A stretch of 64,000 bases of DNA from a virus. The notes under the pieces are model-generated. The model made no database searches. It saw only the letters and a program-made list of their open reading frames with translations, and had not been told where the DNA came from. The first letter of the stretch is position 1. Every line of letters starts with the position of its first letter. The translations under genes and the position numbers were made by a program. Positions 21,601 to 49,905 of this stretch are shown here, piece by piece. The stretch lies in IMG/VR virus record IMGVR_UViG_3300027792_000011; one strand, 5' to 3'.

Positions 21601-21775
21601 AGATGTACAGGAAGACTGGATGGCTCGATTGAACCACGAGCATCTGAAGAGTACGCTTATTGAGGCAGCGCAGCAGGGATGGCAAAGCAATCTGCATGGC
21701 ATGAATCCGATCCCAGCTCTCATGCACGGAGCTGAATTCGGTAAGGGAACCAAGAAAGAGCCATGGGCGTACTAA
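15614..21775 (+). CDS. single-chain multisubunit-type DNA-directed RNA polymerase (beta + beta' fusion)
   Basis: beta motifs TPES..TG, YMPWRGYNFEDG, GDKIVGRHGNKG, NPIGTPGRMNIGQ; beta' motifs GGLFD.KI.G, R.P.LH, NADFDGD, GYL, Zn-site Cys, QSIGERGTQL.MK.FH. GTG 15614 follows SD GGAGG (ORF track start 15599). Confidence 0.95.
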   Translation: MARLDPAEGFEILKNRVKEAVAESFPHEGAKNILELESIDVPDKLSVSNVTDQKSAKMNGRTWGVPVHATLVLKDKKTDKILDRSKIKVATLPKITNRYSYIVDGSEYQIDNQWRLKPGVYTKIQQNGELDSFFNIQGQPLHIGFDPKERSFVFKHGGAQPPLYPIMRALGHSDGDLEKAWGKDILNANMTDSRGKLLNVEKHAINFANRLDPESEVDSLDKASEVIKQKFGESKLHPDVTSRTLGKAIDRITPDAVLRSSQRLLGVARGTEKPDVRDSLMYKEFLSAEDFVGERIRQSAPVIQRRIGNNIDRRDKIRDIVGMDVFQRPIKEFFSKVSLASTPEQTNPLKMISGQLRTTIAGEGGVKDANRITEDAKLIDPSHFGVLDPLHTPESSKTGVNLQLSLGARKVGTRVEIPLISVKTGKVAYLDPGKINDSIVALPDSVKRIGDRFVPKEGTTVLVSAVGNEIKHVPMKDVEYVVPRSSQMFSIATNMVPFISSDSPNRATMAGRHMEQAIPLKDPEPPLVQSVLGKKSFDELVGSYASHSAPINGKITQVGKDVIHILGEDKKSYAVNVYNHYPANDKKGMIHSTPLVKAGDRVTKGQVIADTNFTKNGIYAPGKNLEVAYMPWRGYNFEDGVVISESASQKLTSEHLLKPGLSTKEAKLVSPKKYQAYYQDRLNKEQAAKLDEEGVVKPGMKVKPGDTLIAALQEQQLTTEEQKLKLLHKSLVRPYKDKSVTWDEDVEGEVVEVNKRGSRVDVHVKTAEPMDVGDKIVGRHGNKGIVTLILPDHEMPKTKDGRPIEVIMNPIGTPGRMNIGQVLETAAAKIARKTGQTFKVTNFEIENNLEHVENELKKHGLTDKETIIDPKTGVEIPGIQVGPQYILKMEHQVGKKMAARSRDAYDRNLVPKGGGPHGAQALGSLGNYSMLAHGSKANLREMITYKSDKSQGGDNDELWTALQAGEMLPPPRTTFAYEKFNSYLKAMGVNTEKDGNSLNLVPLTDKHVLEMSNGELKDAGRVVKMRTLQPEKGGLFDQKITGGSDGTNWSHITLSAPMPNPLFEKAVMSVANIRGPQFDKIINGAAGVTKDGIIIEGTGAKGATYGPTAIGHLLAKVDVKKDLATEEARIQGLKGQLQSESRRKVKYLRALDKLGMKPTEAYMMNHVPVLPPNMRPIALLDDGSLQTDDLNEIYKQLAIVNNKHAEFPVGTPQSLKAPLQADIYDHLKALTGLGGTLNRKHPGILDVLAGREGPKTSFVQDVLIKRKQDLTMRSTIVPEPSLSLDEAEIPRKAAKEMYKPFIVRELKRTAGATPLAAKKMIDEDDPLARKALDRVVAERPILLKRDPVLHKYGIQAFKPKLVDGKAIKIHPLVCSGFNADFDGDAMSAYVPITAEAVKEAEQMFPSRNLFSPATGSVMYTPGHEAQVGLFMMADVGKHTNLHFKDHAEAEQAVKARKISPNDLIFIGSVKTTYGRSQLNNLLPPELQGGKLLTDLNFRLTKSEQEKLFNAMANIDRASYPAAINKMKDFGNEAATMGGFSFGLSDFKVHKDIRDPALKLAETKAAKLDLSKKDQLNKYIDIYEGAMKEIDAKLKQRMEDPKYQTNLVKLEIAAGIKGKGLRQLTAAPVLFVDGKSEVVTSPVKKSYSEGLSSGDYWTATSGGRKGAIQRVQSVSEPGYLTKQMANSTMDMLVAAHDCGTSRGISLSVDEPDVIGRYTVADLKLHRDLVPAGTLITPEIMTRIKNAKIDKVVVRSPMRCVHGKGVCAMCMGLSENGRLNDLGTNVGILATQSIGERGTQLAMKAFHSGGVYEGREAASKSIAASGLDRAVNILNLPQKIKGSAVLSTAMGRVNKIDKDPAGGVRININDKQHYVPADRSLLDKIRVGSQIKKGDPITDGPVNPHELLPLTNMSKVQGHLAGELHSIYGQYGIKRRHSELLVKALSNVTKVENPGDHPDLLPGDFTSTTQVYEWNKQNSQSKPVLHTPVLRGVKTIPLDVQEDWMARLNHEHLKSTLIEAAQQGWQSNLHGMNPIPALMHGAEFGKGTKKEPWAY

Positions 21776-22530
21776 ACACCAAGTTTCGTTTCGTCAGTGA
21801 GCAGAAGCTGGACGATCTCGGAATCCGGGATTATCAGCGCGGGGCACGACATCTTATCGCAGTGGACGATAAGGACAAGTTCGTCGGCTACGCAGGTAAG
21901 AACAAGGACGAGCTGGTGGGACTCTATGTGCGTCCGCCTCATCGGCGACAGGGAGTGGCTACACAGCTACTCGATCGTCTTGGAGGTATTCGTACCATAG
22001 AGACCGACACTGCAGACAAACGGGCTCGCAGTTTCTATCAGTCTCGTGGATTTTCTCCGACCGAATCTCATGGAAAGATATTGATCATGGCGAAGACCGC
22101 AATGCTCATTGGACTATCAGATGGGCTGTGCGAGGCAGATGACTATAAAGGTAAAACAATGAACGAGTATGATCAGATCATGTACCAATCCTTCTTTGAC
22201 GAGATGTCTGCTCTTGAGAAGCAAGGCATCCTATCAAAGCTGGCGGCAGCTCCAGGATTCCTAAGCCAGTTGTGGCGAGGTGGAAAGCAACTGGTCAGGA
22301 ATCCAGGAAGTTCGGGTACTGCAATGTCTAAAGCATGGCAACGTGGTGTCGCCAAAGCAGCTCCAGATGCTGGAGGATGGTCCAAAGGATGGTCTGGCCT
22401 GAAGGGTGTTGCTGGAACTCCACAAGGCAAGGCTGCGCTAGTAGGAGCAGGAGGAACACTTGCTGGGGCAGGTGGAGCTGGATATCTGCTAGGACGTGGT
22501 GGACAGAACCAGAATGTGTACGTGAGGTAG
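21763..22530 (+). CDS. GNAT acetyltransferase domain fused to a tagged Gly-rich amphipathic module
   Basis: LYVRPPHRRQGVATQLL acetyl-CoA motif, A.SFYQSRGF; then AKTAM, FFDEMSALEKQG; possible internal start at ATG 22159. Confidence 0.7.
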   Translation: MGVLNTKFRFVSEQKLDDLGIRDYQRGARHLIAVDDKDKFVGYAGKNKDELVGLYVRPPHRRQGVATQLLDRLGGIRTIETDTADKRARSFYQSRGFSPTESHGKILIMAKTAMLIGLSDGLCEADDYKGKTMNEYDQIMYQSFFDEMSALEKQGILSKLAAAPGFLSQLWRGGKQLVRNPGSSGTAMSKAWQRGVAKAAPDAGGWSKGWSGLKGVAGTPQGKAALVGAGGTLAGAGGAGYLLGRGGQNQNVYVR

Positions 22531-22533
22531 TAC

Positions 22534-26080: not shown

Positions 26081-26083
26081 TGA

Positions 26084-26962
26084 GTGAGTGCCCACCCCGC
26101 GATCTACTACGCGAAGTTCTATCTATCACGTAGATCACATACATATGATGGGGTAGCCCAGCTTCTCTCTATCATTGGTCTTGGTGGTCTCAATGCCGAT
26201 GAGCTGGAGACCATCGACAAGATGATGGAGTATCCCAGTCCATTTCTGCCCGATAATCTACGTGATCGACCAAGTCAGAGCTTCTTGCGACACGAACAGA
26301 TCTATGATGCGTGGCATCCAGGTGCAGACATGAAGAGGGCTTTGTCTATCCTGGAAACGTCGAAGCTGAGACATCTGGTGGAGACATACATTCTGTCTCC
26401 CGTCAAACCAGAACAAGCTATCAAGAAGATCAACAAACAGTATACTGACGCTGACATCACAGTGAGGGCATACGATCTGTTCCAGCACTACTTCTGGAAC
26501 AGAGAGTCGATGAGTGGTGTGGAGTGGGGCAAGTTCATAGATGATCGTGATCAGACAAACAAAGAATGGCTAGATCTAGCCGTGAAGGTAAGAGGGCCTG
26601 GTGGCGTACAGGCATTGTTGTGGAAGACTAACAGCGGACCTCTCCGAGGAATAGAAGCTAATAGGGCGTTCACTGACGTACGGAACATCGCGTTCATGTG
26701 CGTTCAGCAGATAGCCATGCAGCGTCCGTCCAAGTACCACTCGGAGATGCTGCTCAACTACACTCGAGCGATGAAGATGTCACAGGAAGGGATCGATGCG
26801 AGCACCGATGCGGTACGAGATGTGGTGCACGCATTCAACTCGTTCAGGATGCGACACGCTGAGATCAATACCCCGTCCGTGCAGTTGTTGACCGGTGGCA
26901 ACTTCTCTGAAGCTGAAGGTGGACCTGACACAGAAGAAAGGCTTGACTATGACGATGTTTGA
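26084..26962 (+). CDS. hypothetical protein
   Basis: SD GGAGG; 292-aa ORF. Confidence 0.7.
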   Translation: MSAHPAIYYAKFYLSRRSHTYDGVAQLLSIIGLGGLNADELETIDKMMEYPSPFLPDNLRDRPSQSFLRHEQIYDAWHPGADMKRALSILETSKLRHLVETYILSPVKPEQAIKKINKQYTDADITVRAYDLFQHYFWNRESMSGVEWGKFIDDRDQTNKEWLDLAVKVRGPGGVQALLWKTNSGPLRGIEANRAFTDVRNIAFMCVQQIAMQRPSKYHSEMLLNYTRAMKMSQEGIDASTDAVRDVVHAFNSFRMRHAEINTPSVQLLTGGNFSEAEGGPDTEERLDYDDV

Positions 26963-27356: not shown

Positions 27357-27362
27357 TAGGGC

Positions 27363-27581
27363 ATGCCCTCTAGCAAAAAGCCATCACAGGTCAAGCATGA
27401 GAAGAGATCTCAGTTGGGAAACTCTCCCTCGGCTGCTGTGAGCGGGAACACTCCAACAGTTCAAGCTTCCTCTCCGATGGGATCAAACACGGTTCCATCT
27501 GCGTACAACACGGTCACGAAAGTTGGGCAGGTGAAGTATGCGGCCTGGGCAGATGAGTTTGAGAAGATCATAGGAAGGTAA
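27363..27581 (+). CDS. small protein with C-terminal WADEFEKII tag variant
   Basis: TATGAT 5 nt before ATG (possibly leaderless); tag-like C-terminus. Confidence 0.6.
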   Translation: MPSSKKPSQVKHEKRSQLGNSPSAAVSGNTPTVQASSPMGSNTVPSAYNTVTKVGQVKYAAWADEFEKIIGR

Positions 27582-27584
27582 CCA

Positions 27585-28052
27585 ATGCCCGCTTGGATAC
27601 ATGATCGAGCTATGAAGCTCAAGAAGCAGATGGAAGACACCTATCCACCAGAGAAGGCCAAGCAGGTTGCCTTCGCTGTCGCAACGCAAATGGCCCACAA
27701 GACCGGCAAGAGTCCAAAGACTTTTGGTACGTCAGAAGGTAGATCGGAAGCCAAGGCCAAGTTCGACAAGCCGAAGAGTGAGTACAAGAAGACTGCCTCC
27801 GCGATCATGTTCGACGGCTTTTCAGATGAGCTGGAGAAGATCGCAATCTCTTTTCGACTTCCATCTGCGATAAGGAACGTTCCAGCAGTTACCAAAAATC
27901 TACTCACCAATGCTAAGACCGGTCTTGGGGCAGCAAAGACTAGTCTTGGAACACTGCCACGTAGAGCGTATACAGCAGCTCATTCACCGCAAGTGCAGCA
28001 CACTATGTACAATCTTGGTGATACTGCTCTACAGCTGGTAGCTCCACATTGA
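27585..28052 (+). CDS. tagged candidate cargo protein
   Basis: YKKTAS followed by FSDELEKIA. Confidence 0.7.
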   Translation: MPAWIHDRAMKLKKQMEDTYPPEKAKQVAFAVATQMAHKTGKSPKTFGTSEGRSEAKAKFDKPKSEYKKTASAIMFDGFSDELEKIAISFRLPSAIRNVPAVTKNLLTNAKTGLGAAKTSLGTLPRRAYTAAHSPQVQHTMYNLGDTALQLVAPH

Positions 28053-28089: not shown

Positions 28090-28488
28090 ATGTATTGGCA
28101 TGTTACGCTTAGAGGATTTTCTGATGAGTTGCAAAAAATAGCTGTAGCACAATGGCGTACTATTGCGCGTGCAGTACCTGGTGCGGCAGAGCGTATGGGT
28201 GCACATCTTAGTCCAGGAGGTGCACTGTCTATTGAGCGTGCTGTTCCACTCAAGCGTCCAGGTATGATTGATGAGGCAGCGTTTTTGAAGCGCCGCGCAC
28301 TTCACCCTGATGCTGCTTCTGTTGTTAGAGAGGGGACAGGAGTGCTGGAAACTGGGGCTCGGGATTTCCCTTCACATACACACGGTACCCCAAGAGCACG
28401 TCAAGTACATGACTATCAATTCATGGGCCACCCACAAGAGTTTTCTGGGACAACTCCAACAACTCCTTGGTTTATGAGGCGCAAATAG
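28090..28488 (+). CDS. tagged candidate cargo protein
   Basis: SD GGAAGG; N-terminal FSDELQKIA. Confidence 0.7.
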   Translation: MYWHVTLRGFSDELQKIAVAQWRTIARAVPGAAERMGAHLSPGGALSIERAVPLKRPGMIDEAAFLKRRALHPDAASVVREGTGVLETGARDFPSHTHGTPRARQVHDYQFMGHPQEFSGTTPTTPWFMRRK

Positions 28489-30181: not shown

Positions 30182-31999
30182 ATGCAGTCAGAACAGATCA
30201 GCGATTACAAGGATTTTTACGTAGATGCCAAGCGAGCTATTGATACTGGAGTCTTCAACCAAGAGGTTGAGGACGAGATCGATCGTATCATGGCCGAGCT
30301 CAATGAAGAGGATGAGGAGATAGCTGAGCTATTCGAGGATGAGGATCAGATACTCACGTCCAAGAGACAGATAGAAGTACTCCCATCAGACTTCACAGAG
30401 TTTGCCATACGCATTCCGGTATCTGGTGATCTGGAGCCTTTCAGCTTCGATCACAGAAGGTACCTCAAGCCGATCTATGATACACCAGCAAGAAGGACAC
30501 TTCTGAAGTGCGCTCGTCAGACCGAGAAGTCGACATCACTTGGTAACAAGAGTCTTGCTTACTGTGGGATCAACTACGGCTTCAAGGTTCTCTATGTCAG
30601 TGCTACGGCAACGCAGGCACAGGTCTTCAGCGTTGATCGTATCAAGGAGCCATTGGACATCTCTCCAGAGATGAGCTTCCTGATCGATACCAAACTGAAT
30701 CAGAACGTTCTATTCAAACAGTTCAAGAATCGATCCCAGATCAGGATCAGGTACGCATTCCTCAATGCAGACCGAACTCGTGGCATTCCAGCGGACATGA
30801 TTCTGATCGATGAGATACAGGACATCTTCTTCAGCAACGTACCTGTCATAGAACAGTGCGCATCCCACTCACAGTGGAAGATCTACTGCTACTCTGGAAC
30901 ACCCAAGAGCCTAGACAACACGATCGAGGTGTACTGGTCCAACTACTCTACTCAGAACGAGTGGATCGTTCCATGTGAACGGCATGGTGTTCCGAGCAAA
31001 CCGAACACCTGGTTCTGGAACATTCTTGGGATCAAGAACATTGGCAGGAAAGGATTGATCTGTGCCAAGTGCGGTCAGCCTATTGATCCAATGCACCCTA
31101 TGGCTAACTGGGCATCCAGGCAACCAGTTACGGAAGAGAATGCGCATAGGGTAACGTTCGAGGGCTACCGTATCTCACAGTTGATGGTCCCTTGGGTAAA
31201 CTGGCAAGACGACATCATCATGGCGCTCGAGCGCTATGGCACAGCTAAGTTCCACAACGAGGTACTTGGTCTGTCATACGATTCAGGTATTCGTCCGCTA
31301 ACCAGAACACAAGTAAGATCATGCTGCAACAAGAACATCCGGCTTAGCTATGTCGTTGAGAATGCACAGAAGTGCTACGGTGGGGTATTCGTTGGCGTGG
31401 ACTGGGGGACCGGAGAGGCTGATTCCTATTCTGTGATCGCATTGGGTGGGTATATGGGTGGGGAGTTCCAGATCTTCTTCGTACACAGATTCATTGGTGA
31501 AGATCTAGAACCACAACGACAGCTACAGATGATCTCGCAACTGCTAGTGTCGGTTCAGTTCAAGCTCATTGGTGCGGACTACGGTGGTGGCTTTGATCGC
31601 AATGACTTCTTGCAGAGAAACTTTGGACCACTGCGTCTAGCCAAGTACCAGTATGCTGGATCACCTAAAGCGAAGGTGAAGTGGCAGCCCAAACTAGGCA
31701 GGTTCATCCTCCACCGTACTGAGGTCATGAGCGACATCTTCAACGCGATCAAGTACAAGAAGATAGCACTGCCCAACTGGGAAGACTTCTCATCTCCGTA
31801 CGCAGACGACATGCTCAACATCTTCAGCGAGTACAATGATCAGCTAAATATGATCCAGTACAAACTGAGCCCTGGAAAGAGTGACGATACTTTCCATGCG
31901 ATCTTGTACTGCTTCCTCGTCTCAATGCTTGCAAAGCCCAGACCCGACATCATCATCCCTCTCCATGCCGGCCACGTTGATTTCCGTAGACCAGGATGA
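30182..31999 (+). CDS. terL: terminase large subunit
   Basis: LKCARQTEKST Walker A, ILIDEIQD Walker B, YSGTP coupling motif, VGVDWG nuclease, DDTFHA. Confidence 0.9.
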   Translation: MQSEQISDYKDFYVDAKRAIDTGVFNQEVEDEIDRIMAELNEEDEEIAELFEDEDQILTSKRQIEVLPSDFTEFAIRIPVSGDLEPFSFDHRRYLKPIYDTPARRTLLKCARQTEKSTSLGNKSLAYCGINYGFKVLYVSATATQAQVFSVDRIKEPLDISPEMSFLIDTKLNQNVLFKQFKNRSQIRIRYAFLNADRTRGIPADMILIDEIQDIFFSNVPVIEQCASHSQWKIYCYSGTPKSLDNTIEVYWSNYSTQNEWIVPCERHGVPSKPNTWFWNILGIKNIGRKGLICAKCGQPIDPMHPMANWASRQPVTEENAHRVTFEGYRISQLMVPWVNWQDDIIMALERYGTAKFHNEVLGLSYDSGIRPLTRTQVRSCCNKNIRLSYVVENAQKCYGGVFVGVDWGTGEADSYSVIALGGYMGGEFQIFFVHRFIGEDLEPQRQLQMISQLLVSVQFKLIGADYGGGFDRNDFLQRNFGPLRLAKYQYAGSPKAKVKWQPKLGRFILHRTEVMSDIFNAIKYKKIALPNWEDFSSPYADDMLNIFSEYNDQLNMIQYKLSPGKSDDTFHAILYCFLVSMLAKPRPDIIIPLHAGHVDFRRPG

Positions 32000-36128: not shown

Positions 36129-38063
36129 ATGATCATCAAACAGTGTCAGTTTTCGGGATGTGATAACCACGGTGTTCATGTTCACCTAGTTCATCCTGGT
36201 TACGACAACGAGCAGCTAGTCAAAACAGCTGCCGCTTCTCCCCCGCAGCTTGAGATCATCCAACGACATTTGAAGAGTATGAGCCGTGCTGACGGAGTGC
36301 TCTACACTCTAGTGAGCGCTCTCGGTGCAGGTGAATACTGGGGATCGAATAGCAACGCGGACTGGTTCGGTACAGATGCTCTTCTGCATGTTCCTCCCGA
36401 CTGGGACTTGATGCCTGCCAATCAGCAGAGGTTGATGGGGCAGAGATGGCAGTGGGGCTACCCCACCTTCTACAATGCGTACGCGTATCAGCATCATGTG
36501 AACAAAGATCCAGCTCGAGCATTCGGCAACATCGAGTATGTCTTGTGGGACTCTCGGATGAAGAGAGTGCTCTTGATAGTTGGAGTAGATCGTCGCAAAG
36601 CGCAAGAGATAGGTGCCCAAGGTATTGTCGATCGAATTGAGAATGGGGAGTATCCAGATGTCTCCATGGGATGCAAAGTCCCATTCGACGTTTGTTCGAT
36701 CTGTGGGGATATGGATTTCCTTCGTCCATTCTTGGGCAAGCCCGCTGACATTGTGCGCATGCACAAGCAGAAGCCGATTCGGGGAGTCAGCACAACAACA
36801 GAAGAGTATTGTCAGCACCTAAAGTTCGAGCTGAACAAGATCTACCCAGATGGGCAACGAGTGATGATGCTCAATGTCCACCCGAGATTCTTCGATCTCA
36901 GTTTCGTATTCATTGGTGCCGACAAGACGAGCAAGATGATAGCTAAGTTGGCTGCTGGACAATGTCCAATAAGGTTGAGCGCACCGATCTGCAAACACGG
37001 ATGTACACAATGTAAGAACGGTGCTGTTCCCTCTCCACATGTGCATGAGGTATGGTCGAAGGAGAAGGCCGCATCTGATCACAGTTGGGAGATCATGACC
37101 GGAGCTCCAGTCGAAATGGATCATGACGATCGATTCTCTTCTACTCTCAAAGCTCCTTACGTAGCGAAGCCTCCAACCGTAACAGCTGAGATGGTCAAAG
37201 AAGCGTACGGGGATTATGGGCTCGAAGAGTTCGAAGAGGAACCTGGAGCTGCAGAACCGGTAGCCAACTACTTCAAGAAACGTATTGGCGGAAGAATGAT
37301 CAAGAAGTCGGAGATAGCCAAAAGGGTATCTTCGCACTTCGGAAGATCAATGCCTTCTATTGAACGTAGTGAGCAGGACATTCCACATCACATTCAGGAT
37401 GAGATGGCTGAAGATCTTCCTCATAGCCTCAGCTCTGCTGGTGGTCTAGGGATCGTTGTGAAGCCGCGAGAGTTCCAGAGGATGATGTTGATCTCTTCTG
37501 GACACCGTAACTTGGCAGAAGATCTCGATGGGCAAGGAGCATCCTTCTGTCCTGGTGCTCCTATGGATCGTGGGTTCGGAATAGCCGACAGAGTCATTCC
37601 CAGGATCCTGGAAGCCTTGATGCCTTTGATTCACGATCGTAGTTCCTTCGGTCCTGCTCTCCACAAGAGGATTACAATCGTCATCCAGAAATCTCCACAT
37701 GAGCACGAAGGGCACTCAATGCATCATGTAGGTGGAGATCTCATGGATAAAATCAGTAGTGCATATACGTCTTATAGACGTGGACTGATCTATAAGACCG
37801 CTAGTCTCGTTTCCCAGGCTTTGAATGAGAAACCAGAGATCTTGAATCAACTGTACGGTGGTGATCTGGTTCGAGCGTTCGGTGGGGGTCTTGTCAAAGC
37901 TGGGGGCAATGTGATGGAATCTTTGATTGGAGGCATGCTACCTTTGATCTACTTGAATCAGGCGCACTTTGGTGGACCTGTATCCGAGTACGTTCAAGGA
38001 CACCTCGATCTTGATGGGCTCATCAAAGCAGGTGGGCTCGCAACTTGCGGCGGGTTGGCGTAG
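36129..38063 (+). CDS. prohead maturation protease (HK97/assemblin-type) with Cys insert
   Basis: HH..KDP...G.I, VSMGC (putative catalytic Ser), CSICG, FFDLSFV..GAD; upstream of scaffold-like and capsid genes. Confidence 0.75.
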   Translation: MIIKQCQFSGCDNHGVHVHLVHPGYDNEQLVKTAAASPPQLEIIQRHLKSMSRADGVLYTLVSALGAGEYWGSNSNADWFGTDALLHVPPDWDLMPANQQRLMGQRWQWGYPTFYNAYAYQHHVNKDPARAFGNIEYVLWDSRMKRVLLIVGVDRRKAQEIGAQGIVDRIENGEYPDVSMGCKVPFDVCSICGDMDFLRPFLGKPADIVRMHKQKPIRGVSTTTEEYCQHLKFELNKIYPDGQRVMMLNVHPRFFDLSFVFIGADKTSKMIAKLAAGQCPIRLSAPICKHGCTQCKNGAVPSPHVHEVWSKEKAASDHSWEIMTGAPVEMDHDDRFSSTLKAPYVAKPPTVTAEMVKEAYGDYGLEEFEEEPGAAEPVANYFKKRIGGRMIKKSEIAKRVSSHFGRSMPSIERSEQDIPHHIQDEMAEDLPHSLSSAGGLGIVVKPREFQRMMLISSGHRNLAEDLDGQGASFCPGAPMDRGFGIADRVIPRILEALMPLIHDRSSFGPALHKRITIVIQKSPHEHEGHSMHHVGGDLMDKISSAYTSYRRGLIYKTASLVSQALNEKPEILNQLYGGDLVRAFGGGLVKAGGNVMESLIGGMLPLIYLNQAHFGGPVSEYVQGHLDLDGLIKAGGLATCGGLA

Positions 38064-38135: not shown

Positions 38136-38993
38136 ATGAACGAGTTCCTGGCAGGCTACTATGGGACGGACGCTAACGGCGGCAATGGTGACGCGGACGC
38201 CCTCGAGAAGATGGCTCAACTCACTCTCCTGGTCAAAGAAGCTGAGGAGAATGACATCGACATCTCTTCGCTTTCGGACGAAGAGGCCATGCAGCTTGCG
38301 GAAGAGCTGTACGGCGATGATGGCTCCGATGCTGGTGAGCAGACCGGAGAAGAGGACCTCGAGAAGGAGGCGCAAGCCAAGTTCGAGGAGGCCGACTTCC
38401 TGGGTCGAGTGATGGCCCATTCCATGTGGCAAGAGCTCGACAGCATCCAGAAAGAAGCTGGTGCGGTTGGAGAAGCTGCCGGAAAGGCATGGAAGTGGAT
38501 GAGGGCCGCTCCCGGAAAAGCTCACAAGGCGACTCTTGGCCGCCTCGGAGAGGCAGCCGCTGAAGCAGCCGAGAAGGGCACTGCTGGAAGGATCGCTGCG
38601 CAGCCGGGCCGTATGAGGAAGCAATACGGTGTCGAGAAGGCCCGAAAGATGCGCAAGGGCGAGTTCACCGAATCAGAAGCAGCCAAGATCATGAGGCGTG
38701 GCCGACAGGCCAACATCGCTACGCAAGCCGGTGCTGCTACTCTCGGAACAGCAGCACTCGCCGGTGGAGGCGTAGCCGCACACAAGGCTCTCAAGAAGAA
38801 AGGCTCCGCTCTCAACTCCTTGATCGAGCAACGAGCCATCGAACATCTCGCCGCAGCCGGCTACGTTGATCAACAGGGCAATGTCTACGCTGCTGTCGAG
38901 AAAACAGCGGCCGACAATGACTTCAACATGATGGTCGACAAGGCCGCCCTCGAGCTCCTCGAGCAGAACGGCTACCCGGTTCAGTGGCGGTAG
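38136..38993 (+). CDS. scaffold-like protein with basic insert
   Basis: acidic N-terminus; LEKMAQ, LEKEAQ, IQKEAG, VEKTAA. Confidence 0.65.
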   Translation: MNEFLAGYYGTDANGGNGDADALEKMAQLTLLVKEAEENDIDISSLSDEEAMQLAEELYGDDGSDAGEQTGEEDLEKEAQAKFEEADFLGRVMAHSMWQELDSIQKEAGAVGEAAGKAWKWMRAAPGKAHKATLGRLGEAAAEAAEKGTAGRIAAQPGRMRKQYGVEKARKMRKGEFTESEAAKIMRRGRQANIATQAGAATLGTAALAGGGVAAHKALKKKGSALNSLIEQRAIEHLAAAGYVDQQGNVYAAVEKTAADNDFNMMVDKAALELLEQNGYPVQWR

Positions 38994-39009: not shown

Positions 39010-39291
39010 ATGGAGCTGACCATGTTGCATGCCTTGGTAGATGAGATGACGAAGATCTGTGCAGTCTCGTCACCATCTATCAAGGCTCCACCTACTCCTG
39101 GTGGGGTGAACGGCAATATGAGCGCTAAGCCACAAGGACCAGTGCCCATAGGCAAGATCACCGGAAAAGCACTTGGTGGCACCAATCTGATGAAGACCAA
39201 CTACACTACTGCAAACACGAGAGCGCAGGCACCAGACATCGCTCTGACCTCTGAACAGAAGGCCCTTACGCCTCCGGTGGTCAGATCGTAG
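39010..39291 (+). CDS. small tagged protein
   Basis: LVDEMTKICA leader. Confidence 0.6.
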   Translation: MELTMLHALVDEMTKICAVSSPSIKAPPTPGGVNGNMSAKPQGPVPIGKITGKALGGTNLMKTNYTTANTRAQAPDIALTSEQKALTPPVVRS

Positions 39292-39305: not shown

Positions 39306-40733
39306 ATGGGACAATCTCTTTCCAGACTGATCGAAGCCGCGCTCCTTGACGGCAACACCGGAGTGATGGAGAAGATCGCTCAGGAGGCCGAAGGCGAAAC
39401 AGCCGAGCACGAGAAGTGTGAAGAGTGCGGAAAGGCTGCTGTCGCTGGATCGAAGTTCTGCAAGGAGTGCGCATCCAATAAGGCCCGATCGGAAGAGAAG
39501 GCCAGTGGAATGAGTGAGGGAGAAGGTAGCGAGAAGACCTCTTCCGCCCGGATCGAAAAGCTCGCCTCGGCGGTGGAGTTCATCCGGGATAACTTCCTCT
39601 CGATCCAAATGCCCGTAGGTCGGGTGAAGATGGCGGCTGATACCCCAGCCGATGTCGGACCCGGTCAGGGCGCAAATGCACTGGAGACCAATCTCAAGAA
39701 AGTGACTCCAGGAGAAGCTCCAGAAGGATTCGGTGAGGCCAAGGCAAAGAAGCCGGCCATGACCGTTCCTCTGGAAGTTGGAGCGTCGCCAAACGCAGCG
39801 GCGACTGCAATCCAGACCGACGCCAACAATCCTCCAGGTGGACCAGGTGAGCAACCTCAGATGATCCAAACTGGCGGTACTGGTGGCGACAAGCCGCAAG
39901 CCAAGACTGCCAGCGTGAACCGAATCATGAATGCCATGATGAAGTCAGCGGCTACTGACGAAGAGATCGCAGCCATCCGCAGAGAAAGAAAGTCAGGAGC
40001 TTTGCTAGGTGGTGCCCTCGGTGGTGCTGCCCATGGGGCAGTAGCTGGGGGTGCTTATGGTGGTGGTCTACCTGGGGTACTTCTAGGGGGCGTTGGTGGT
40101 GCCGCCGGCGGCGCCCTTGGTGGTGCTGCCTACGAATCCGATTGGGGTAGGCGCCATCCGATTGCCAGGCATGCGGTGCCCATCATGCTTCTGGGTGGCC
40201 CAGTGGGCCACGCTGGCGCTCTAATCGGTGCCCATATGGCAGGCGATGAGCCAGAAAAAACAGCGGCAGATGATCAGGGCGAAGATCACAAGACGCTCGC
40301 CCCAAGAACGATGGATGCCACCACACCGGAAGACAAGCCCTCTGGTGTGGAACGCCCAGCAGAGGTCACCTCCCAAGAGAAGCATATCTCTTCGTCAGAA
40401 GCAGCGATCAATATGACGAAGCGAGAAGGCAAGGAGGTTCCGAAGAAGCGAATGGGCGATATCCTGAGTGAGCCGATGCTTGCAGCATCGACCGACTCAA
40501 CGCTTGGAAAAGCATTGGGACCTCAGGTAGTCAATCAGGCTGGTGCCAAGATCGCTGCGGCACAAGCCCGAGTCCTTTTGCAGAAAGTCGCATCGCAGAA
40601 ATGCACCTGCAATAATGCAGGCTCATGCGGATTCTGCAAGATCGCTTCAAAGATGGACCAGAAGCACACGAAGCAGGCTGGAGCTTTGTGGGAAGCTGGT
40701 CGCAACCCGAGCACCCGCGCTCGGTCGGTGTAG
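39306..40733 (+). CDS. scaffold/core-like polyprotein with ~12 K-x-A sites and Gly-zipper insert
   Basis: SD GGGAGG; EKIAQ, EKLAS, VKMAA, AKTAS, MKSAA, EKTAA, AKIAA, QKVAS, CKIAS, TKQAG. Confidence 0.7.
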   Translation: MGQSLSRLIEAALLDGNTGVMEKIAQEAEGETAEHEKCEECGKAAVAGSKFCKECASNKARSEEKASGMSEGEGSEKTSSARIEKLASAVEFIRDNFLSIQMPVGRVKMAADTPADVGPGQGANALETNLKKVTPGEAPEGFGEAKAKKPAMTVPLEVGASPNAAATAIQTDANNPPGGPGEQPQMIQTGGTGGDKPQAKTASVNRIMNAMMKSAATDEEIAAIRRERKSGALLGGALGGAAHGAVAGGAYGGGLPGVLLGGVGGAAGGALGGAAYESDWGRRHPIARHAVPIMLLGGPVGHAGALIGAHMAGDEPEKTAADDQGEDHKTLAPRTMDATTPEDKPSGVERPAEVTSQEKHISSSEAAINMTKREGKEVPKKRMGDILSEPMLAASTDSTLGKALGPQVVNQAGAKIAAAQARVLLQKVASQKCTCNNAGSCGFCKIASKMDQKHTKQAGALWEAGRNPSTRARSV

Positions 40734-41665: not shown

Positions 41666-42796
41666 ATGACAACGAGAGCTCAAGTCCTGAACGACCTGTT
41701 CGTCCAGAACCTCGATAGCTACGAAGGCAAGGAGAAGGTCGCACAAGCTGGTGGTACCTTCATCCGAGATCGTCTTCGTGAAGTCGCGTTCTCCAGGCAG
41801 GTCATCCCGCCCGAGAACGTCACCAAAGCCGACTGCCAGCGCAGCACGCGGCACGACACCTTGGTCAAGATCATCGACGTGGAACCCCAGAGCAAAGCGA
41901 TGGCGATCACATTCCGTGGTCAGCCAAATGCTCGCTTCGTTCGAGGTTCTCGTGCGGAGATCCCCTTCTTCACCATTTCGTCAGAGAAGTTCGAGAAGGT
42001 GGAGCAGGAGCTGCTTGCCTACGAGATGCCGATCACTCGCATCATCGAAGACAACAGCGTGAAGGACATCCAAGAGATCGAAGACCGAGAGTTCTTGTTG
42101 CACATCGAAGCGGCTGTCCAGGCCATGCAGGCGGACGCAAACGGTGTTGCTGCTGCTCCGGCTCTCAACAACGCTGCCATCAATGGCGCCACTCCTCCGA
42201 AAGAGTTCTCAGTCCGCAAGGGCGAGCTCTGTCGGCAGGTTGGTGTGGCTGACAACTCGTACATCTGGCCGCTTCAGAGACCTGACCTGGTCAATATGCA
42301 CAAGCTGCTGGATGGGAACCGCTTGAGGGCTGAGAAGATCCTCATGACGGAATACGACTTCGACGACCTCAACCAGTGGACCGTTGAGGACTTCGGCTCG
42401 AAGCTCGAAGGTGAGACGGCTGTAGACGGTTACAAGTACTCCACGCTGCTCGGTCGTGCGTTCGTCCGAACGATCAAAACCGACATTCTGCGTCCGGGGA
42501 ACTTGTACGTCTTCACGTCTCCAGAGTTCTTGGGCAAGTTCTACGTCCTCAACAACACGAAGTTCTACATCGACAAGATCGCGAATCTCATCACGTGGCA
42601 ATCGTGGGAAGACATCGCAATGTCGATCGTGAACATTGCTTCGGTTCGCAAGATGGAGCTCTACTCCGGTGATGCGACGGCGCACAATACGGATTCGATC
42701 CGTACTGACGTCACGCCGAAGGACGAGGCCGATCTCGGAGCCGTGAACAACCGAGTCGATGCCGGCTTGGTGTTCCCACAGGTGAAGGTCTACTAG
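41666..42796 (+). CDS. major capsid protein
   Basis: 376 aa, strong SD, strong codon bias, follows protease/scaffold genes, terminator downstream; IQEIEDREFL spine-helix-like segment. Confidence 0.75.
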   Translation: MTTRAQVLNDLFVQNLDSYEGKEKVAQAGGTFIRDRLREVAFSRQVIPPENVTKADCQRSTRHDTLVKIIDVEPQSKAMAITFRGQPNARFVRGSRAEIPFFTISSEKFEKVEQELLAYEMPITRIIEDNSVKDIQEIEDREFLLHIEAAVQAMQADANGVAAAPALNNAAINGATPPKEFSVRKGELCRQVGVADNSYIWPLQRPDLVNMHKLLDGNRLRAEKILMTEYDFDDLNQWTVEDFGSKLEGETAVDGYKYSTLLGRAFVRTIKTDILRPGNLYVFTSPEFLGKFYVLNNTKFYIDKIANLITWQSWEDIAMSIVNIASVRKMELYSGDATAHNTDSIRTDVTPKDEADLGAVNNRVDAGLVFPQVKVY

Positions 42797-44185: not shown

Positions 44186-44212
44186 GTGATTTCAATAGGT
44201 TAGAGGTAGATC

Positions 44213-44683: not shown

Positions 44684-44693
44684 GAGCAAGATC

Positions 44694-46550
44694 ATGTCTC
44701 ACACATTTGACAGTATGCTCAAAGAAGCTACCGCGCTGCCGTGGGCAATGGGCGCACGTCTCATGGTCGAGCTCCGCAGCACGGTCAGAATTCCTGAAGA
44801 GCCGAGGATGACCAAGTCTGCAGCTGCTGGTCTTGTGAAGATAGCACGCATTTGCAAGATGGCTCAGACTCCTGAAGAGGCGCAGCAAACCGTTCAGCAA
44901 CAAGCCATGGTCGATCCAAATGTCGTACAGGCTTTGGACTACCAGCAGGCGGAGAGTGAACGGCAGGCTATGATGGCCAAGATCCAAGAGCTGCAGATGG
45001 CTACTGAGGCCGCGCAGGCTCAGGCTCAGATGGCCGATCAGCAAGCTCAGGCTGCTACGCAACAGCAGGAGCAGTTGATGATGCAGGCACAGCAGGCCAA
45101 GCAAGAGCAGGTCAATGCTGTGATGGAGTCGATGCAGGCCAAGGATCAGACTCTCCAGGTCCAGGTATCTTCTCAGCAGCATCGTCAACAAGTTGCTCAG
45201 TTTGCCCAGCAGATGGCTGATCAACTCAAGCAACTAGCTACTACGAGTCCTGAAGAGCAACAGATGCAGGAGCAGGCCGCTGCTGAACAAGAACAGCAAC
45301 AGCAGGCGGCGATGCAGCAACAGCAGCAGGGACAAGAGCAGCCAGTAAAGAAGAAGACGAAGCAACAGCAGCAAGAAGCCCAGAACTCCCAGGAGAACGC
45401 ACAGAAGCAAACAGCACAAGCTGAGCAGGCAACTGCACAAGATCAGCAAGAGATGCAGGGAATGCAGGCTCAAGCCCAGCAACCACAACAGCCCCAAGTA
45501 CCTCCAATGGGAGGTCAACCGAAGATGGGATCAGCGAAGCTGCAGAAGATCGCTGCTAGGTTCAAGTTCGCTCGTATTCGGAAACAGGCTCAGTTCTCTG
45601 GCACCAATGAGGGGTACGGAGAGAGCCAAGGAGGATCGGGACAGCAGGGGATGTTCTCCTACTCCTCGATGGGGAAGAGAGAATCTCTTCCAGCAAAGCA
45701 GTTTGCGGCTTTGAGATCAAAGGTGAAGAAGCGAGAAGGTACAGGAAAGAGTAAGACTGGATCAGCAGAAGCTCAGGTTATTGGTATCGAGCTTGGCGTA
45801 GATTGGTCCAGGGCAAACTTCACACCCGCTGATCTCGCTAAAGGTATGAAGATCGAAGAGGAGCACGGATCGAAAGACTCTCGTGAGACTGCCAAAGTCG
45901 CTATCGATCACCTTCGAGAACGTGGAGACTACTACGATCTTCTAGCGAAGAAGGTTGAAGAAGCTCCCAAGACGGATGGCGGGGAATCAGCAGCCAAGGA
46001 GAAGCAAGAGCAACAGCAGGAAAAGCAAGGATCATTTGATCATAGAAGAGCCATGATGATCGCTCAACGAGTCAGGTTGATCAAAGAAGGTCAGCTAAAA
46101 AAAGTGTGTAGGGACTCTGCTGATATTGCGGAGTCCCACCAACTTCAACTCGTGAAGAGTGCTGCGAAGATGAAACTTCCAGTAGTAGAGAGTGGTGCGC
46201 ACAGACTCGGTAGGGCTGGTGCCTACGCAGCTCTTGGAGCAGCTCTTGGAGCTGCCTACGAGAAGTCGCGGCTACGGGCTCATGAGAAGAAGGTTGGACT
46301 TGACAAACCAACTCAAAAAGAGATTGATCTTGCTGGCAAGCTAGTGGGTGCCAAGGAGTTGGCCAAGAGGGAGCCAACTTACGCAAACAAGCTCCGTATT
46401 CATAACATCAAGTATAAGATCGACATGGAGAGGTTGGGGCGGGAACATCCGAATAGAGCAGCTTTGAGAGGAGCTGGTTTGGGTGCGCTTGGTGGTTTCG
46501 CGCTAGGGCCATTCGTTCACAGAGTAGCTGGAAAGATCATCAAGAGATAG
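44694..46550 (+). CDS. Gln-rich modular protein with DUF5661-like and Gly-zipper modules separated by K-x-A/K-x-G sites
   Basis: Q-rich coiled coil; KGMKIEEEH...AIDHLRE..DYY motif; LKEAT, TKSAA, VKIAR, CKMAQ, QKIAA, RKQAQ, VKSAA. Confidence 0.7.
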   Translation: MSHTFDSMLKEATALPWAMGARLMVELRSTVRIPEEPRMTKSAAAGLVKIARICKMAQTPEEAQQTVQQQAMVDPNVVQALDYQQAESERQAMMAKIQELQMATEAAQAQAQMADQQAQAATQQQEQLMMQAQQAKQEQVNAVMESMQAKDQTLQVQVSSQQHRQQVAQFAQQMADQLKQLATTSPEEQQMQEQAAAEQEQQQQAAMQQQQQGQEQPVKKKTKQQQQEAQNSQENAQKQTAQAEQATAQDQQEMQGMQAQAQQPQQPQVPPMGGQPKMGSAKLQKIAARFKFARIRKQAQFSGTNEGYGESQGGSGQQGMFSYSSMGKRESLPAKQFAALRSKVKKREGTGKSKTGSAEAQVIGIELGVDWSRANFTPADLAKGMKIEEEHGSKDSRETAKVAIDHLRERGDYYDLLAKKVEEAPKTDGGESAAKEKQEQQQEKQGSFDHRRAMMIAQRVRLIKEGQLKKVCRDSADIAESHQLQLVKSAAKMKLPVVESGAHRLGRAGAYAALGAALGAAYEKSRLRAHEKKVGLDKPTQKEIDLAGKLVGAKELAKREPTYANKLRIHNIKYKIDMERLGREHPNRAALRGAGLGALGGFALGPFVHRVAGKIIKR

Positions 46551-46554
46551 GGGA

Positions 46555-48018
46555 TTGAACATGCTAGATATGTTGCAGAAGCAGGCATCACAGGTCAAAA
46601 CAGCAGCAGACCAATTCAGAGATCTGATGCACAATCTAGACAAGCTAGCATTCAAACCTGATCCATTCCGTAGGATGGAAGGTATGGATCCCCTGCTAGC
46701 TGTCCGTGAGTACGATTCTCCGGTATACGTGCGGCATAGGACAACTCCAGGTGGAGTTGACGAGCTGCTCTCCGAACCACCGAAGAAGACAGTAGCCGAG
46801 ACCAATCGTCTCACGAGTGAAGCACAGGAACCTCCTCAACCGTCAGAGGATGGAAACGACAGTAGATCGGTTGCGAAAGACAACAAGTCGCTTGGAACGG
46901 TTGGCTATACTTGGGAGCAGAACAAGAAACCGGAGACCGTTCCAGATCTTGCTTCCATGAAAGTTCCAGGAACTGGTGGGACTGCTGCGCCCCAACCCAG
47001 TATACCGAAATCAGCAAGTAGATCTCGTATACAGAATGTGTTTGATCAAGATCTGATGGATCTAGTAAAGATGGGACTTGCTGGTCCAGCTCCTGTGATG
47101 GCCGGAAGTCCGACAATGTCACCAGCTATGAAAAATAAGCCGGTGATCGCAACTACTCCTACTCCTGACAAAGGCGCTCAAGCACCAGCAAAGAAGAAAC
47201 TACCAGGTTGGGTACTTCCAGCTGGAATAGCTGCTGGTGCCTTGGGGGTAGTAGGTCTTGGCGCCCTTGCTGGTAGATCAGCTAGAAAGTCCTTTGCTAG
47301 AGAGTTCGGTGGAGGCGGTGGAGGTCGTGCAGCTGCTGAGCACTATACATGGAACATTGGCGGTAAGGCTGGCAAGGGATCATGGGAGGACTACACCAAA
47401 GCCCGTCAGGCTCATCAGGCTGAGCGAGATACCTACTGGGCTGGGCAAAAGGCGAAAGCCGATGCCGATTTTGCTGCGTCAAGAGAGGCTCATAGAAAAG
47501 CCTATGAGGAAGGACGAGCTGCGCACCAGGCGAAAGAAAAAGCTAGGAGTGAACAGAAAACCAGTTGGGAAGACAAATGGGAGGATTTCAATAAGAGGTG
47601 GGGAAGAGGCGGATCAGAGTGGGGAGAAAGGACTCACTCCGGAAGAGCTGGAGGAGGTCAAGCTGGGTGGGGAAGTGGGGGAGCAGCTGTACCACACGAG
47701 GCGGATAGAGTCTGGGAAGAGACTAGAAAAGCTACGCAAGAAGCTGCAAACGAAGCCGCGAAAAGAGGTGAAGCCGCCAATCGTGACATGCCAACTAGAG
47801 AAGAAATGGCTGAAGCATTTCGTTTTTATGGACTTGATCTGAAAACCCATAAGAGAGCAGATGTCATCAAGAAGCACAAAGAGATCGTAAAAAAGTATCA
47901 CACAGACAAAGCCGGCGGAGGAAGCAGAGAAGAAGTGGCTAAGGCTAATACCATGTTTGAGAGACTGAAGAAGATCAGTTCTCTCAAACTTGTATACGAT
48001 CTGGGAATGGTTCGCTAG
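46555..48018 (+). CDS. modular protein with TM helix and C-terminal J-like domain (HTD)
   Basis: QKQAS, VKTAA, PKSAS; WVLPAGIAAGALGVVGLGALAG; AFRFYGL...VIKKHKEIVKKYHTDK.GG..EE..KAN. Confidence 0.7.
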   Translation: MNMLDMLQKQASQVKTAADQFRDLMHNLDKLAFKPDPFRRMEGMDPLLAVREYDSPVYVRHRTTPGGVDELLSEPPKKTVAETNRLTSEAQEPPQPSEDGNDSRSVAKDNKSLGTVGYTWEQNKKPETVPDLASMKVPGTGGTAAPQPSIPKSASRSRIQNVFDQDLMDLVKMGLAGPAPVMAGSPTMSPAMKNKPVIATTPTPDKGAQAPAKKKLPGWVLPAGIAAGALGVVGLGALAGRSARKSFAREFGGGGGGRAAAEHYTWNIGGKAGKGSWEDYTKARQAHQAERDTYWAGQKAKADADFAASREAHRKAYEEGRAAHQAKEKARSEQKTSWEDKWEDFNKRWGRGGSEWGERTHSGRAGGGQAGWGSGGAAVPHEADRVWEETRKATQEAANEAAKRGEAANRDMPTREEMAEAFRFYGLDLKTHKRADVIKKHKEIVKKYHTDKAGGGSREEVAKANTMFERLKKISSLKLVYDLGMVR

Positions 48019-48902
48019 TGCTCAACGTTGTCAACGTTCAGGTAAAGTCACTCGAACTGGATCACCTCGATGTGTACTGGGAGATCTCAGACTCATCGGA
48101 GGATGCTTGGGACTACACCTTCACCGTTGAGCGCAGTGAGTCTGCTATGGGTCCGTTTGATCAGGCAAGCGAGCCATTCTCCGACAAGTACTACTTCCGA
48201 GATTCCATCGTGAACCTCTACAGCAGGTGGAGGCAGCTCTGGTACAGGATCAAGGTCACCAGTAAGCTAACCAGTGAGTTCGTCTATAGTGCGTCAGCTA
48301 CTCAAGAACCAAGACCGTCTCTTGATGCCATTGAAGTACGTAGGCTCGAGCTCATTGCGTTTAGAGAGCACATCGGACGGCTAGTGTGGATCTTTCCAGT
48401 ACGTACCTTTGGGCAGCGATGCCCAGACTGCTACGACAAGAGAACTGGCAATCGTCGTAGATCACAGTGTCCAACCTGTTTCAGTACTACATACGTTCGT
48501 GGGTATCTGGATCCTATCGCGACGTATCTGCAAATCGATCCAAGTCCTAAGCATGTTGAGATGCTGCAGGTGGCTAAGACTGAGCAGTCGAACACTACGG
48601 GAAGGACACCCTACTTCCCGCCACTGAAGCCGAAAGATATAATCGTAGAAGCTGAGAATAGAAGGTGGAGGATTGAGAGGGTAAGTACTACGCAGCGTTT
48701 GAGGGCGGTCCTGCACCATGAGGTGGTGCTGCATGAGATCCCAAGAGCGGACATCGAATATTCGATTCCGATCAACATAGATGATCTCAGAAGATTGGAG
48801 CCCAGTCCGCAGCGTGAGTTCACGAACCCTCACAACCTTGAGAGCTTGGATGGAGCCGAGTTCATCAACAACCTTCTAACAGGACACGGTTTTGGAACAT
48901 GA
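48018..48902 (+). CDS. neck/head-closure-like protein (FN3-like N-terminus, Cys cluster)
   Basis: VYWE...VERSES..GPF...YRIK; RCPDC...CPTC; KDIIVE..NRRWRI. Confidence 0.5.
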   Translation: MLNVVNVQVKSLELDHLDVYWEISDSSEDAWDYTFTVERSESAMGPFDQASEPFSDKYYFRDSIVNLYSRWRQLWYRIKVTSKLTSEFVYSASATQEPRPSLDAIEVRRLELIAFREHIGRLVWIFPVRTFGQRCPDCYDKRTGNRRRSQCPTCFSTTYVRGYLDPIATYLQIDPSPKHVEMLQVAKTEQSNTTGRTPYFPPLKPKDIIVEAENRRWRIERVSTTQRLRAVLHHEVVLHEIPRADIEYSIPINIDDLRRLEPSPQREFTNPHNLESLDGAEFINNLLTGHGFGT

Positions 48903-49492
48903 TCAATTTTGCATCATTTAGTGACGAGCTGCAGAAGATTGCTGCTGAGCCTATTGTGGCTGATCCGATCAATAAAGAAGAACTAGTACGTCACTATCAG
49001 CAACTCGGCCGTATAGGTGGTGGAGTGGGTGGTGCTGCTCTTGGTGGTGGCGGGCTTGGACTACTCGGATCTAGAATTGCTGGAATACCTGGTGCCGTAG
49101 TTGGTGGCACAGTTGGTGCACTTGGTGGCGGTTACCTTGGTGGGAAGTACGTTGGTAGAGCTGCCAAAGGAATAGCTATGGGAACGCCTGAAGATGTATT
49201 CCAGGCACGTGCAAATCTTGATCATGCGGAGGACTTGTACGAACGTGGAGAGTTGGGAGATAAGGATCGTCTGCGAGCCACATTGATCGCGTCCAACGCC
49301 GCCAGAAAGGCTCACGGAAGAAAACCTCTAGAGTCTGACTTTCTATCTCGTGATCGACCAGGATCTTACGTAGTGGAAGGTAGAGATGTCGCGGTCAATC
49401 CTTATGGTATTTCTTACGCAGATCCATATGGATATAGACCGGGACCGGCACAAGTGACTTCTAGATATCGAAGAGTTCCTATGAGCGAGTAA
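48899..49492 (+). CDS. tagged Gly-zipper candidate cargo protein
   Basis: N-terminal FSDELQKIAA; GGAALGGGGLGLLG...GGTVGALGGG. Confidence 0.72.
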   Translation: MINFASFSDELQKIAAEPIVADPINKEELVRHYQQLGRIGGGVGGAALGGGGLGLLGSRIAGIPGAVVGGTVGALGGGYLGGKYVGRAAKGIAMGTPEDVFQARANLDHAEDLYERGELGDKDRLRATLIASNAARKAHGRKPLESDFLSRDRPGSYVVEGRDVAVNPYGISYADPYGYRPGPAQVTSRYRRVPMSE

Positions 49493-49905
49493 TGTACGAT
49501 CTTGTATCCATAGCTGCCTTCCGCGATGAGATGACCAAACTGGCGCAGGAGTCTGCTCAGCGCATTGATCCGCAGGCTATTGAGCTGCAACAAGCTCTAG
49601 ATCAGGAGCAGGGCCGGAGAACGATGAACCGGCAAGCTCTAGGGCAGTTCTTGAAGGACACTGCTATCGTTGCTGGTGGTGTTGGGGCTGGATATGGGCT
49701 AGGTCGGTTGTCAGTGGATGCTCTGACAAAGCTACGAGGGCCAGTATCAAGTCCATGGCGTCAAATGCTGTATGCAACATTTCCGGTAGTGGCAGGTGGT
49801 GCTGCTCTAGCTGTTCGTGGGAAGATGCGAGAAGAGCAAGATCGAAGGCTGGAAGAAGCATATCAGAGGGGTGTTCAGTCCGCAGGTAGTAGGGTGGGCA
49901 GGTGA
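49492..49905 (+). CDS. tagged two-TM candidate cargo protein
   Basis: N-terminal FRDEMTKLAQ; two hydrophobic Gly-rich helices. Confidence 0.72.
   Translation: MYDLVSIAAFRDEMTKLAQESAQRIDPQAIELQQALDQEQGRRTMNRQALGQFLKDTAIVAGGVGAGYGLGRLSVDALTKLRGPVSSPWRQMLYATFPVVAGGAALAVRGKMREEQDRRLEEAYQRGVQSAGSRVGR

Follow-up and report, generated by a model that had tools for sequence, protein, structure and literature searches.

A portable helical peptide ending in K-x-A on unrelated proteins of an uncultured myovirus lineage: a putative load-and-clip leader

The 64,000-nucleotide stretch of IMG/VR virus record IMGVR_UViG_3300027792_000011 analysed here (the window; bases 1717-65716 of the 173,992 bp contig C1) encodes several otherwise dissimilar small proteins that share a short peptide, F-x-D-E-L-x-K-I-A or a close variant of it, and this raises the question of what one peptide does on unrelated proteins. 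The original prediction for this locus, made from the sequence alone, took the tag for an amphipathic load-then-cleave signal that directs diverse effectors into the phage head for injection, like the capsid-targeting sequence (CTS) of the internal proteins of phage T4. The explanation that we favour, with modest confidence, is that the tag is a leader of the T4 CTS type, which loads proteins into the head, is then clipped off and ends in the maturation cleavage site of this phage lineage.

Form and distribution of the tag

The strict tag pattern occurs eight times in the phage proteome, as compared with 0.085 times in residue shuffles, and the core pattern occurs six times in C1 and not once in the other 3.6 Mb of the bin to which this contig had been assigned, as expected of a phage-specific element. 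Five to ten tags are present in each of the five complete genomes used for tag and motif counts (C1, G001, G003, G004 and G005), where at most 0.2 would be expected, and 96 of 98 relaxed matches in related contigs lie on the coding strand. A chance origin is excluded by the strict-pattern, core-pattern and coding-strand counts. The logo of 78 instances reads Met, 3-8 residues, [IV]-x-[ML]-x-[AS] and then F-[FWVSY]-[DE]-E-[LM]-x-K-[ILV]-[AGS], with hydrophobic positions spaced as in an amphipathic helix, which agrees with the amphipathic character proposed earlier. Over at least 135 distinct DNA copies of the exact motif, F, D, E, L, K, I and A are each encoded by all of their synonymous codons. 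Selection therefore acts on the tag peptide, and the earlier view that conservation is at the protein level holds for the wider set. The motif strings were not found in published papers by a text search of the literature.

To collect further examples, IMG/VR was scanned with a degenerate DNA pattern for A-F-x-D-E-L-x-K-I-A, which returned at least 120 stretches, mostly from contigs of 130-210 kb. Together with capsid-anchored loci, these stretches gave a set of at least 239 non-identical complete tagged open reading frames (ORFs), and the fractions of 239 given below apply to the matches listed. The last tag residue is Ala in 187/239, with Ile, Leu or Val before it, and in 208/239 (87%) the nearest upstream ATG lies no more than 15 residues ahead of the tag, which is usually followed by 50-200 residues.

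In the window, all nine tag strings of the original prediction are present in the + strand ORFs named for them; the numbers given there are ORF starts and not motif positions, and the range assigned to the strings, 21763-49905, holds them all apart from the one in the ORF that starts at 12288. The canonical tag occupies residues 10-18 of ORF 28090-28488 (132 amino acids (aa); tag at 28117-28143, + strand), the cargo of which is homologous to two tagged paralogues of G001. Pattern matching further located it at residues 7-15 of ORF 48899-49492 (197 aa; 48917-48943, +), where a Gly-zipper-like segment follows, and, in the form F-R-D-E-M-T-K-L-A, at residues 10-18 of ORF 49492-49905 (137 aa; 49519-49545, +), which consists of the tag, a linker and a Gly-rich hydrophobic segment. 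A variant ending in K-I-C-A lies at residues 9-18 of ORF 39010-39291 (93 aa; 39034-39063, +), a gene that has scaffold-like genes on either side and precedes the major capsid gene. The 39010 family, with 29 non-identical members in contigs of relatives, has the canonical tag at the N-terminus in those relatives. In ORF 27585-28052 the tag is internal (residues 79-87; 27819-27845, +), and ahead of it lie a small domain at the N-terminus and, at residues 69-71, a generic K-T-A; the same layout of domain, K-T-A, leader and tag is found in G001, G005 and the related locus L175.

Three copies belong to a long variant with three extra residues ahead of x-K-x-A/G. These are at residues 14-25 of ORF 12288-13205, encoding a Gly-rich protein directly upstream of the portal gene (12327-12362, +), at residues 144-155 of ORF 21763-22530, between a GNAT domain (residues 12-103) and a Gly-rich tail (22192-22227, +), and at residues 97-108 of the scaffold-like protein 38136-38993 (38424-38459, +). 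The variant is considered genuine because orthologues of two of these genes have the canonical short tag in relatives. The 12288 gene carries the long tag in C1 and G001 and the short one in G003 and G005, and the 38136 orthologue carries the short one in loci L056, L063, L071 and L080. Across 37 orthologues, the I, K and A of the 38136 site (residues 104-108) show identities of 100, 78 and 89%, respectively.

The ninth string is a C-terminal copy ending in K-I-I (27546-27572, +) in the 72-aa ORF 27363-27581, a doubtful gene or a remnant, for which no orthologue was found in the closest complete genome, G001. As fewer than 31 residues follow the tag in only 2/239 tagged ORFs, this copy is atypical. 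The ORF is Ser/Pro-rich, and its tag-like string is followed by G-R and a stop codon 3 bases before the ATG of the next gene; it could be the remnant of a recombination at a tag. The earlier description of the tag as lying near the N-terminus thus suits the ORFs starting at 28090, 48899, 49492, 39010 and 12288, and does not suit those starting at 27585 (residue 79), 21763 (residue 144) and 38136 (residue 97).

A tag-like N-terminal leader ending in L-Q-K-V-A and conserved in relatives is also found at residues 8-16 of ORF 11381-12307 (11402-11428, +). Outside the window, C1 has three more copies, in genes 7429-7863 (-), 89375-89653 (-) and 165850-166290 (+). The second of these genes encodes 92 aa and belongs to a minus-strand operon that also holds a second tail-sheath-like gene (C1:91923-93674, -; phrog_15433, E 9e-87), additional to the 1080-aa sheath encoded in the window. 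The structural module, a quarter of the proteome, holds about half of the tagged genes of the complete genomes.

Proteins that carry the tag

It had been proposed to catalogue the sequences that follow the tag in related contigs. In the 239 tagged ORFs, the parts downstream of the tag form at least 129 BLAST clusters, and Pfam searches with 91 cargo representatives identified DUF5661, an SNF2 helicase, LigD phosphoesterase with ATP ligase, glyoxalase with GNAT, MazG, InPase, DnaJ and Gly-zipper families. The tag is therefore portable across unrelated proteins, some of them enzymatic, as predicted. Most of the cargo is small and lacks annotation, often with Gly-zipper-like hydrophobic segments. 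The phrase ‘diverse effectors’ is overstated for the window, where tagged proteins are mostly small Gly-rich or hydrophobic peptides and some are paralogues.

DUF5661 is the most common Pfam family among the tagged proteins (6 of the 91 representatives), and the domain is often followed by K-T-A and then by the leader and tag. A small domain of this type recurs in 27585-27800, in 44694-46550 (residues 362-419) and in L175:3994-4419. In two proteins consisting of LigD phosphoesterase and ligase, the tag lies downstream of the enzyme domains, at residues 491 and 573. As it can be internal or follow an enzyme domain, the tag marks a module boundary as well as serving as a leader.

Arrays of 4-8 consecutive tagged small genes are present in loci L175, L091 (directly upstream of the portal gene) and L131. 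In the window, a variable slot with tagged genes, including the ORF starting at 48899, lies between the conserved genes 48018-48902 and 49902-50747, and the ORF starting at 49492 has a positional orthologue in nearly all loci that have both flanking genes. The product of 48018-48902, a protein of the neck region, is conserved, has 294 aa and contains two CxxC pairs (likely a zinc ribbon); it is orthologous to the structural protein gp234 of Salmonella phage Arash. In locus L083 (IMGVR_UViG_3300034198_029092), a 65-kb fragment, several larger tagged proteins adjoin one another, including an SNF2 helicase, and another tagged protein bears an NlpC/P60-like sequence signature, as judged by eye. 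This cluster is a candidate group of packaged enzymes.

The K-x-A site, the prohead protease and the phage lineage

The end of the tag conforms to a shorter motif, hydrophobic-x-K-x-A (h-x-K-x-A), which is 3-fold enriched in C1 and concentrated in head-module proteins. In the form h.K.A[ASG], it is found 37 times in the structural module of C1, where 5.8 copies are expected, and 11 times in the rest of C1, where the expected number is 11.2. The structural modules of G001, G003, G004 and G005 contain 35, 26, 30 and 29 copies, respectively, where about 6 are expected, which makes the enrichment 4- to 6-fold over the five modules, and outside the module there is no enrichment in C1, G001 or G003 and a slight one in G004 and G005 (18 versus about 13 expected).

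A scaffold-like acidic protein (38136-38993, +) and a second scaffold-like protein (39306-40733, +) contain 6 and 5 h-x-K-x-A sites, respectively. Alignments of these proteins show 80-100% identity at K and at A, as compared with 10-40% at the residue between them and in the flanks. In the scaffold-like proteins, helical mini-domains of about 20-35 residues recur, with K-x-A sites at the borders of each, which makes these proteins resemble a polyprotein; such repeats were seen in the C-terminal part of 38136-38993, in Arash gp223 and in the Vibrio phage D69 protein 19013-19822 in L202. The major capsid protein (41666-42796, +), assigned by family search, carries a conserved E-K-[IV]-A (residues 23-26). 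The short motif is likewise abundant in the head genes of Arash and D69, where it is present at the N-termini of the capsid protein (gp226 in Arash) and the protease (gp222 in Arash). The extended tag, in contrast, was not found in 49-kb structural regions of these two phages, where a search for it gave only two chance-like internal hits.

The slot between the orthologues of 48018 and 49902 relates the tag to the short motif. It always holds a small protein, which in close relatives starts with the full tag and in distant relatives has a leader that ends only in h-x-K-[LT]-A; in D69, the slot protein has a 12-residue leader ending in L-E-K-I-A. Furthermore, the residues preferred directly after the tag are A, G, E, S and Q, with Pro in 0/239, and the same five lead after 316 generic sites. 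As slot orthologues and downstream preferences match, the tag is regarded as the generic site plus an upstream helix. Judging from these sequence patterns, the K-x-A that closes the tag is most likely a site at which a gp21-like prohead protease cuts during maturation.

A suitable protease is encoded by ORF 36129-38063 (+), which includes a catalytic domain at about residues 40-262, a disordered linker and a C-terminal domain. Pfam and PDB sequence searches with this ORF gave no match, and the protease was identified by fold search alone. An AlphaFold 2 model of the first 285 residues (36129-36983), built from 28 sequences, had a predicted local distance difference test (pLDDT) score of 77.5. 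The structure closest to the model was that of T4 gp21 (5JBL; Foldseek probability 0.99; VIA Z 8.5, root-mean-square deviation 3.1 Å over 139 residues), followed by herpesvirus proteases with Z of about 5. As modelled, the protein has the fold of T4 gp21 and herpesvirus assemblin. Residues H122, H123, S179 and H212, invariant in 29 full-length orthologues and nearly invariant in the 28-sequence alignment of the domain, are the putative catalytic residues. The protease family is encoded in all seven complete tag-bearing genomes examined.

The protease itself contains K-x-A sites. K32 and A34, just N-terminal of the protease domain, are invariant in the 29 orthologues, and a second K-x-A (residues 273-275) follows the last strand of the domain, so that the two sites flank the catalytic domain. 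T4 gp21 self-processes at both ends of its catalytic domain. In a model of the full-length protein, the sites at residues 32-34, 273-275 and 357-359 lie in low-confidence linkers, a fourth (residues 554-558) lies within a helix, and a second folded domain is located at about 413-505. No K-x-A segment was docked in the active site of this model, the linker being simply disordered.

Contig C1, with 215 called genes, represents a myovirus according to family searches, which identified the portal protein (13214-15124, +), an RNA polymerase, the large terminase (30182-31999), the major capsid protein and the 1080-aa sheath (50753-53995). The first 50 bases of C1 reappear 55 bases from its end (a 55-bp terminal overlap), and thus C1 is a complete phage genome, either circularly assembled or terminally redundant. 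It was binned in a 3.8-Mb bin, and its content of G and C (GC) is 0.51, with about 0.59 in the remaining contigs; C1 may belong to a phage that was mis-binned or that infects the bacterium whose metagenome-assembled genome has GC 0.59. Capsid proteins with 66-99% identity are encoded by more than 300 IMG/VR contigs, many of 130-210 kb. The cultured relatives, Arash and Vibrio phages D69, D148 and D181, are only distant (capsid identity 28-39%). A search for related loci with the protein encoded by 26084-26962 gave no match.

Explanations of the tag and comparison with known systems

Under the load-and-clip explanation, the tag helix (about 9-18 residues, amphipathic and usually 4-11 residues after the Met) would attach the protein to part of the prohead core during assembly. 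The prohead protease would then cut after K-I-A, and the cargo would be freed inside the head and leave with the DNA; at an internal tag, the same cut would part the modules of a small polyprotein. The motif h-x-K-x-A, usually followed by A, S, G, E or Q, would be the head-maturation cut site of the gp21-fold protease. This explanation is rated best because three features match T4: a protease of the gp21 fold, a short site scattered through core proteins, and a leader that ends in this site on unrelated, fast-changing proteins. The load-then-cleave prediction is borne out in that the tag is portable, usually N-terminal, phage-specific and terminated by K-x-A, that a gp21-like protease is encoded in the window and that tagged genes form variable arrays; we infer from these features the loading of the cargo into virions, the cutting at the tag and the targeting by the F-x-D-E part. 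For the targeting role of this helix there is one reason, namely that more than 300 generic sites do without it.

Several observations weigh against this explanation. A bulky residue (V, L, I, F, M or K) follows the tag in about a quarter of cases. Proteases bind their substrates as extended strands, and a helical leader would need an exosite or another receptor. In the clade that bears the tag, which consists of phages from wetlands or sediments, there is no cultured member, the closest cultured phages being the distant Arash and D69, and both cleavage at K-x-A and the presence of tagged proteins in virions are deduced from sequence. The Arash virion table, with 116 proteins, is near-complete in coverage and permissive, and it cannot resolve processing (PMC10585845).

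The tag also would not be the sole route into the head, as a likely virion protein lacks it. The 2058-aa fused beta-beta' RNA polymerase (15599-21775, +), assigned by family search, adjoins the portal gene and is probably packaged in the virion. In Arash, in which the RNA polymerase subunits are encoded by separate genes, these subunits were the most abundant virion proteins detected (PMC10585845), and this abundance suggests a packaged RNA polymerase of the multisubunit type. However, neither the tag nor an h-x-K-x-A site was found in the polymerase of C1, and the N-terminus of the polymerase has no conserved K-x-A. In C1, beta-like and beta'-like modules are joined in a single ORF that immediately follows the portal gene.

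The tag always ends in the generic K-x-A and has the same downstream preferences, which would equally be expected if the helical leader were a processing signal only, improving or timing recognition by the protease via an exosite, with entry into the prohead decided by other parts of the protein. Tags that are internal or lie behind enzyme domains, of which the ligase and GNAT fusions are examples, likewise resemble polyprotein boundaries, and the E-L-x-x-I spacing is like that of double-glycine leaders. However, the F-x-D-E part is absent from the more than 300 generic sites and is hence not needed for a site to exist, no C39 peptidase was found on C1, and the marked preference for the N-terminus and the occurrence of small, variable genes in arrays suit an address label better. 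We consider a role in processing alone rather unlikely.

Less probable again is an uncleaved interaction or membrane helix, unrelated to the capsid, that anchors Gly-zipper proteins and some enzymes to a common partner or the host membrane, with a role in lysis, superinfection exclusion or a replication compartment. Many of the cargoes are Gly-zipper or hydrophobic peptides, for which a membrane role fits too, and cleavage of the tag is itself a deduction. The main structural module contains only about half of the tagged genes, and those of C1 that lie elsewhere adjoin the second sheath-like gene and tail-fibre-like genes; this distribution likewise counts against loading into the head. On the other hand, the last three residues of the tag are the motif enriched only in structural-module proteins, positional orthologues cut the tag down to this bare motif, and tagged genes adjoin the portal, scaffold, capsid and neck genes. 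In addition, the Arash Gly-zipper small proteins gp213 and gp224 are listed among the virion proteins, though the list is permissive.

Common descent only, with all tagged proteins forming one diverged paralogous family in which the N-terminus is merely the best-conserved part, would account for the paralogous cargoes (the 28090 product and those of two G001 genes, and the slot family) and for the tandem arrays, which suggest duplication. Given the at least 129 cargo clusters with no detectable similarity, the unrelated Pfam folds among them (SNF2, ligase, GNAT, MazG and glyoxalase) and the occurrence of the tag before or after domains, it is highly improbable. Two export routes were rejected. 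Signal peptidase I needs a small residue at -3, where the tag has Lys, and double-glycine leaders processed by C39 do not fit a tag that ends mostly in Ala after Ile, Leu or Val; PF03412 was found only on the host contig C2 and not on C1.

A broader form of the load-and-clip explanation is put forward tentatively and with some doubt. In a widespread family of uncultured myoviruses of 175-210 kb from the environment, a helical label of 9-18 residues would be sufficient to load arbitrary proteins into the prohead and would be removed by a gp21-fold protease of new K-x-A specificity. Rapidly exchangeable cargo, including membrane-active Gly-zipper peptides, a helicase, a ligase, an acetyltransferase and a pyrophosphatase, would be delivered with the DNA and the virion RNA polymerase, and the pair of tag and protease could be re-used as a packaging tool. 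New here would be the specificity for K-x-A, the length and fixed form of the tag, its use at internal positions and the phage lineage, the principle itself being known from T4 and, as regards processing, from phiKZ-like phages. If the load-and-clip explanation is right, a cleavage specificity would be defined for an uncharacterised branch of the gp21/assemblin family, and the packaged and injected proteome of a phage family that is large, abundant and entirely uncultured could be listed by a simple sequence rule; candidates for early-acting and anti-defence enzymes would be on this list. It would also provide a second, sequence-unrelated case of the T4 load-then-clip principle, with an unusually long and well-defined tag that could be tried as a protein-encapsidation handle. 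For genes that otherwise lack annotation, the motif indicates the true start codon and the limits of domains.

Among the known systems, double-glycine leaders and encapsulin cargo-loading peptides resemble the tag in function only. In the former, a helical leader guides a C39 protease that cuts after small residues, but neither C39 nor an ABC transporter is encoded on C1. Encapsulin peptides are short and portable and send unrelated cargo to a shell of the HK97 fold, but are mostly C-terminal and not cut. Herpesvirus assemblin cleaves its maturation and release sites after (V/L/I)-x-A and before S. It shares the protease fold, and the putative cut in the present system is likewise after Ala, with a small residue next and a hydrophobic residue upstream. 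The difference is that Lys would be required two residues before the Ala and that there would be dozens of substrates in place of a protease-scaffold pair.

In phiKZ-like giant phages (201phi2-1, phiKZ and SPN3US), propeptides are cut by gp175/gp245 at A/S/G-x-E (PMC10052503). As proposed for the C1 lineage, these phages have a gp21-like protease that cuts many head and ejection proteins at a single short motif, with several copies of the motif per propeptide (PMC10052503). However, the enriched motif of the C1 lineage, h-x-K-x-A, has Lys at P3 and, in place of Glu, Ala at P1, and the phiKZ-like phages have no single conserved leader helix common to unrelated cargo.

The closest parallel is the T4 CTS, carried by IPI-III and Alt and removed by gp21. 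Diversity is high among the internal proteins of T-even phages, which have in common only a conserved CTS, by which they enter the scaffolding core (PMC3012670). The two leaders are not similar in sequence, and the putative cut is after K-x-A in the C1 lineage, with no Glu at P1, and after L/I-x-E in T4. The tag is also longer, has a fixed D-E...K polar pattern and doubles as an internal module boundary, and its cargo, for which packaging and cleavage are predicted, consists mainly of Gly-zipper peptides together with a helicase, a ligase and GNAT proteins. In common with the CTS, the tag is a short N-terminal amphipathic leader on unrelated, fast-evolving proteins, and it is predicted to end in the consensus site of the gp21-fold protease of the phage itself. 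Its genes, like the T4 internal-protein loci, form variable arrays, and the cargo plausibly leaves the head with the DNA.

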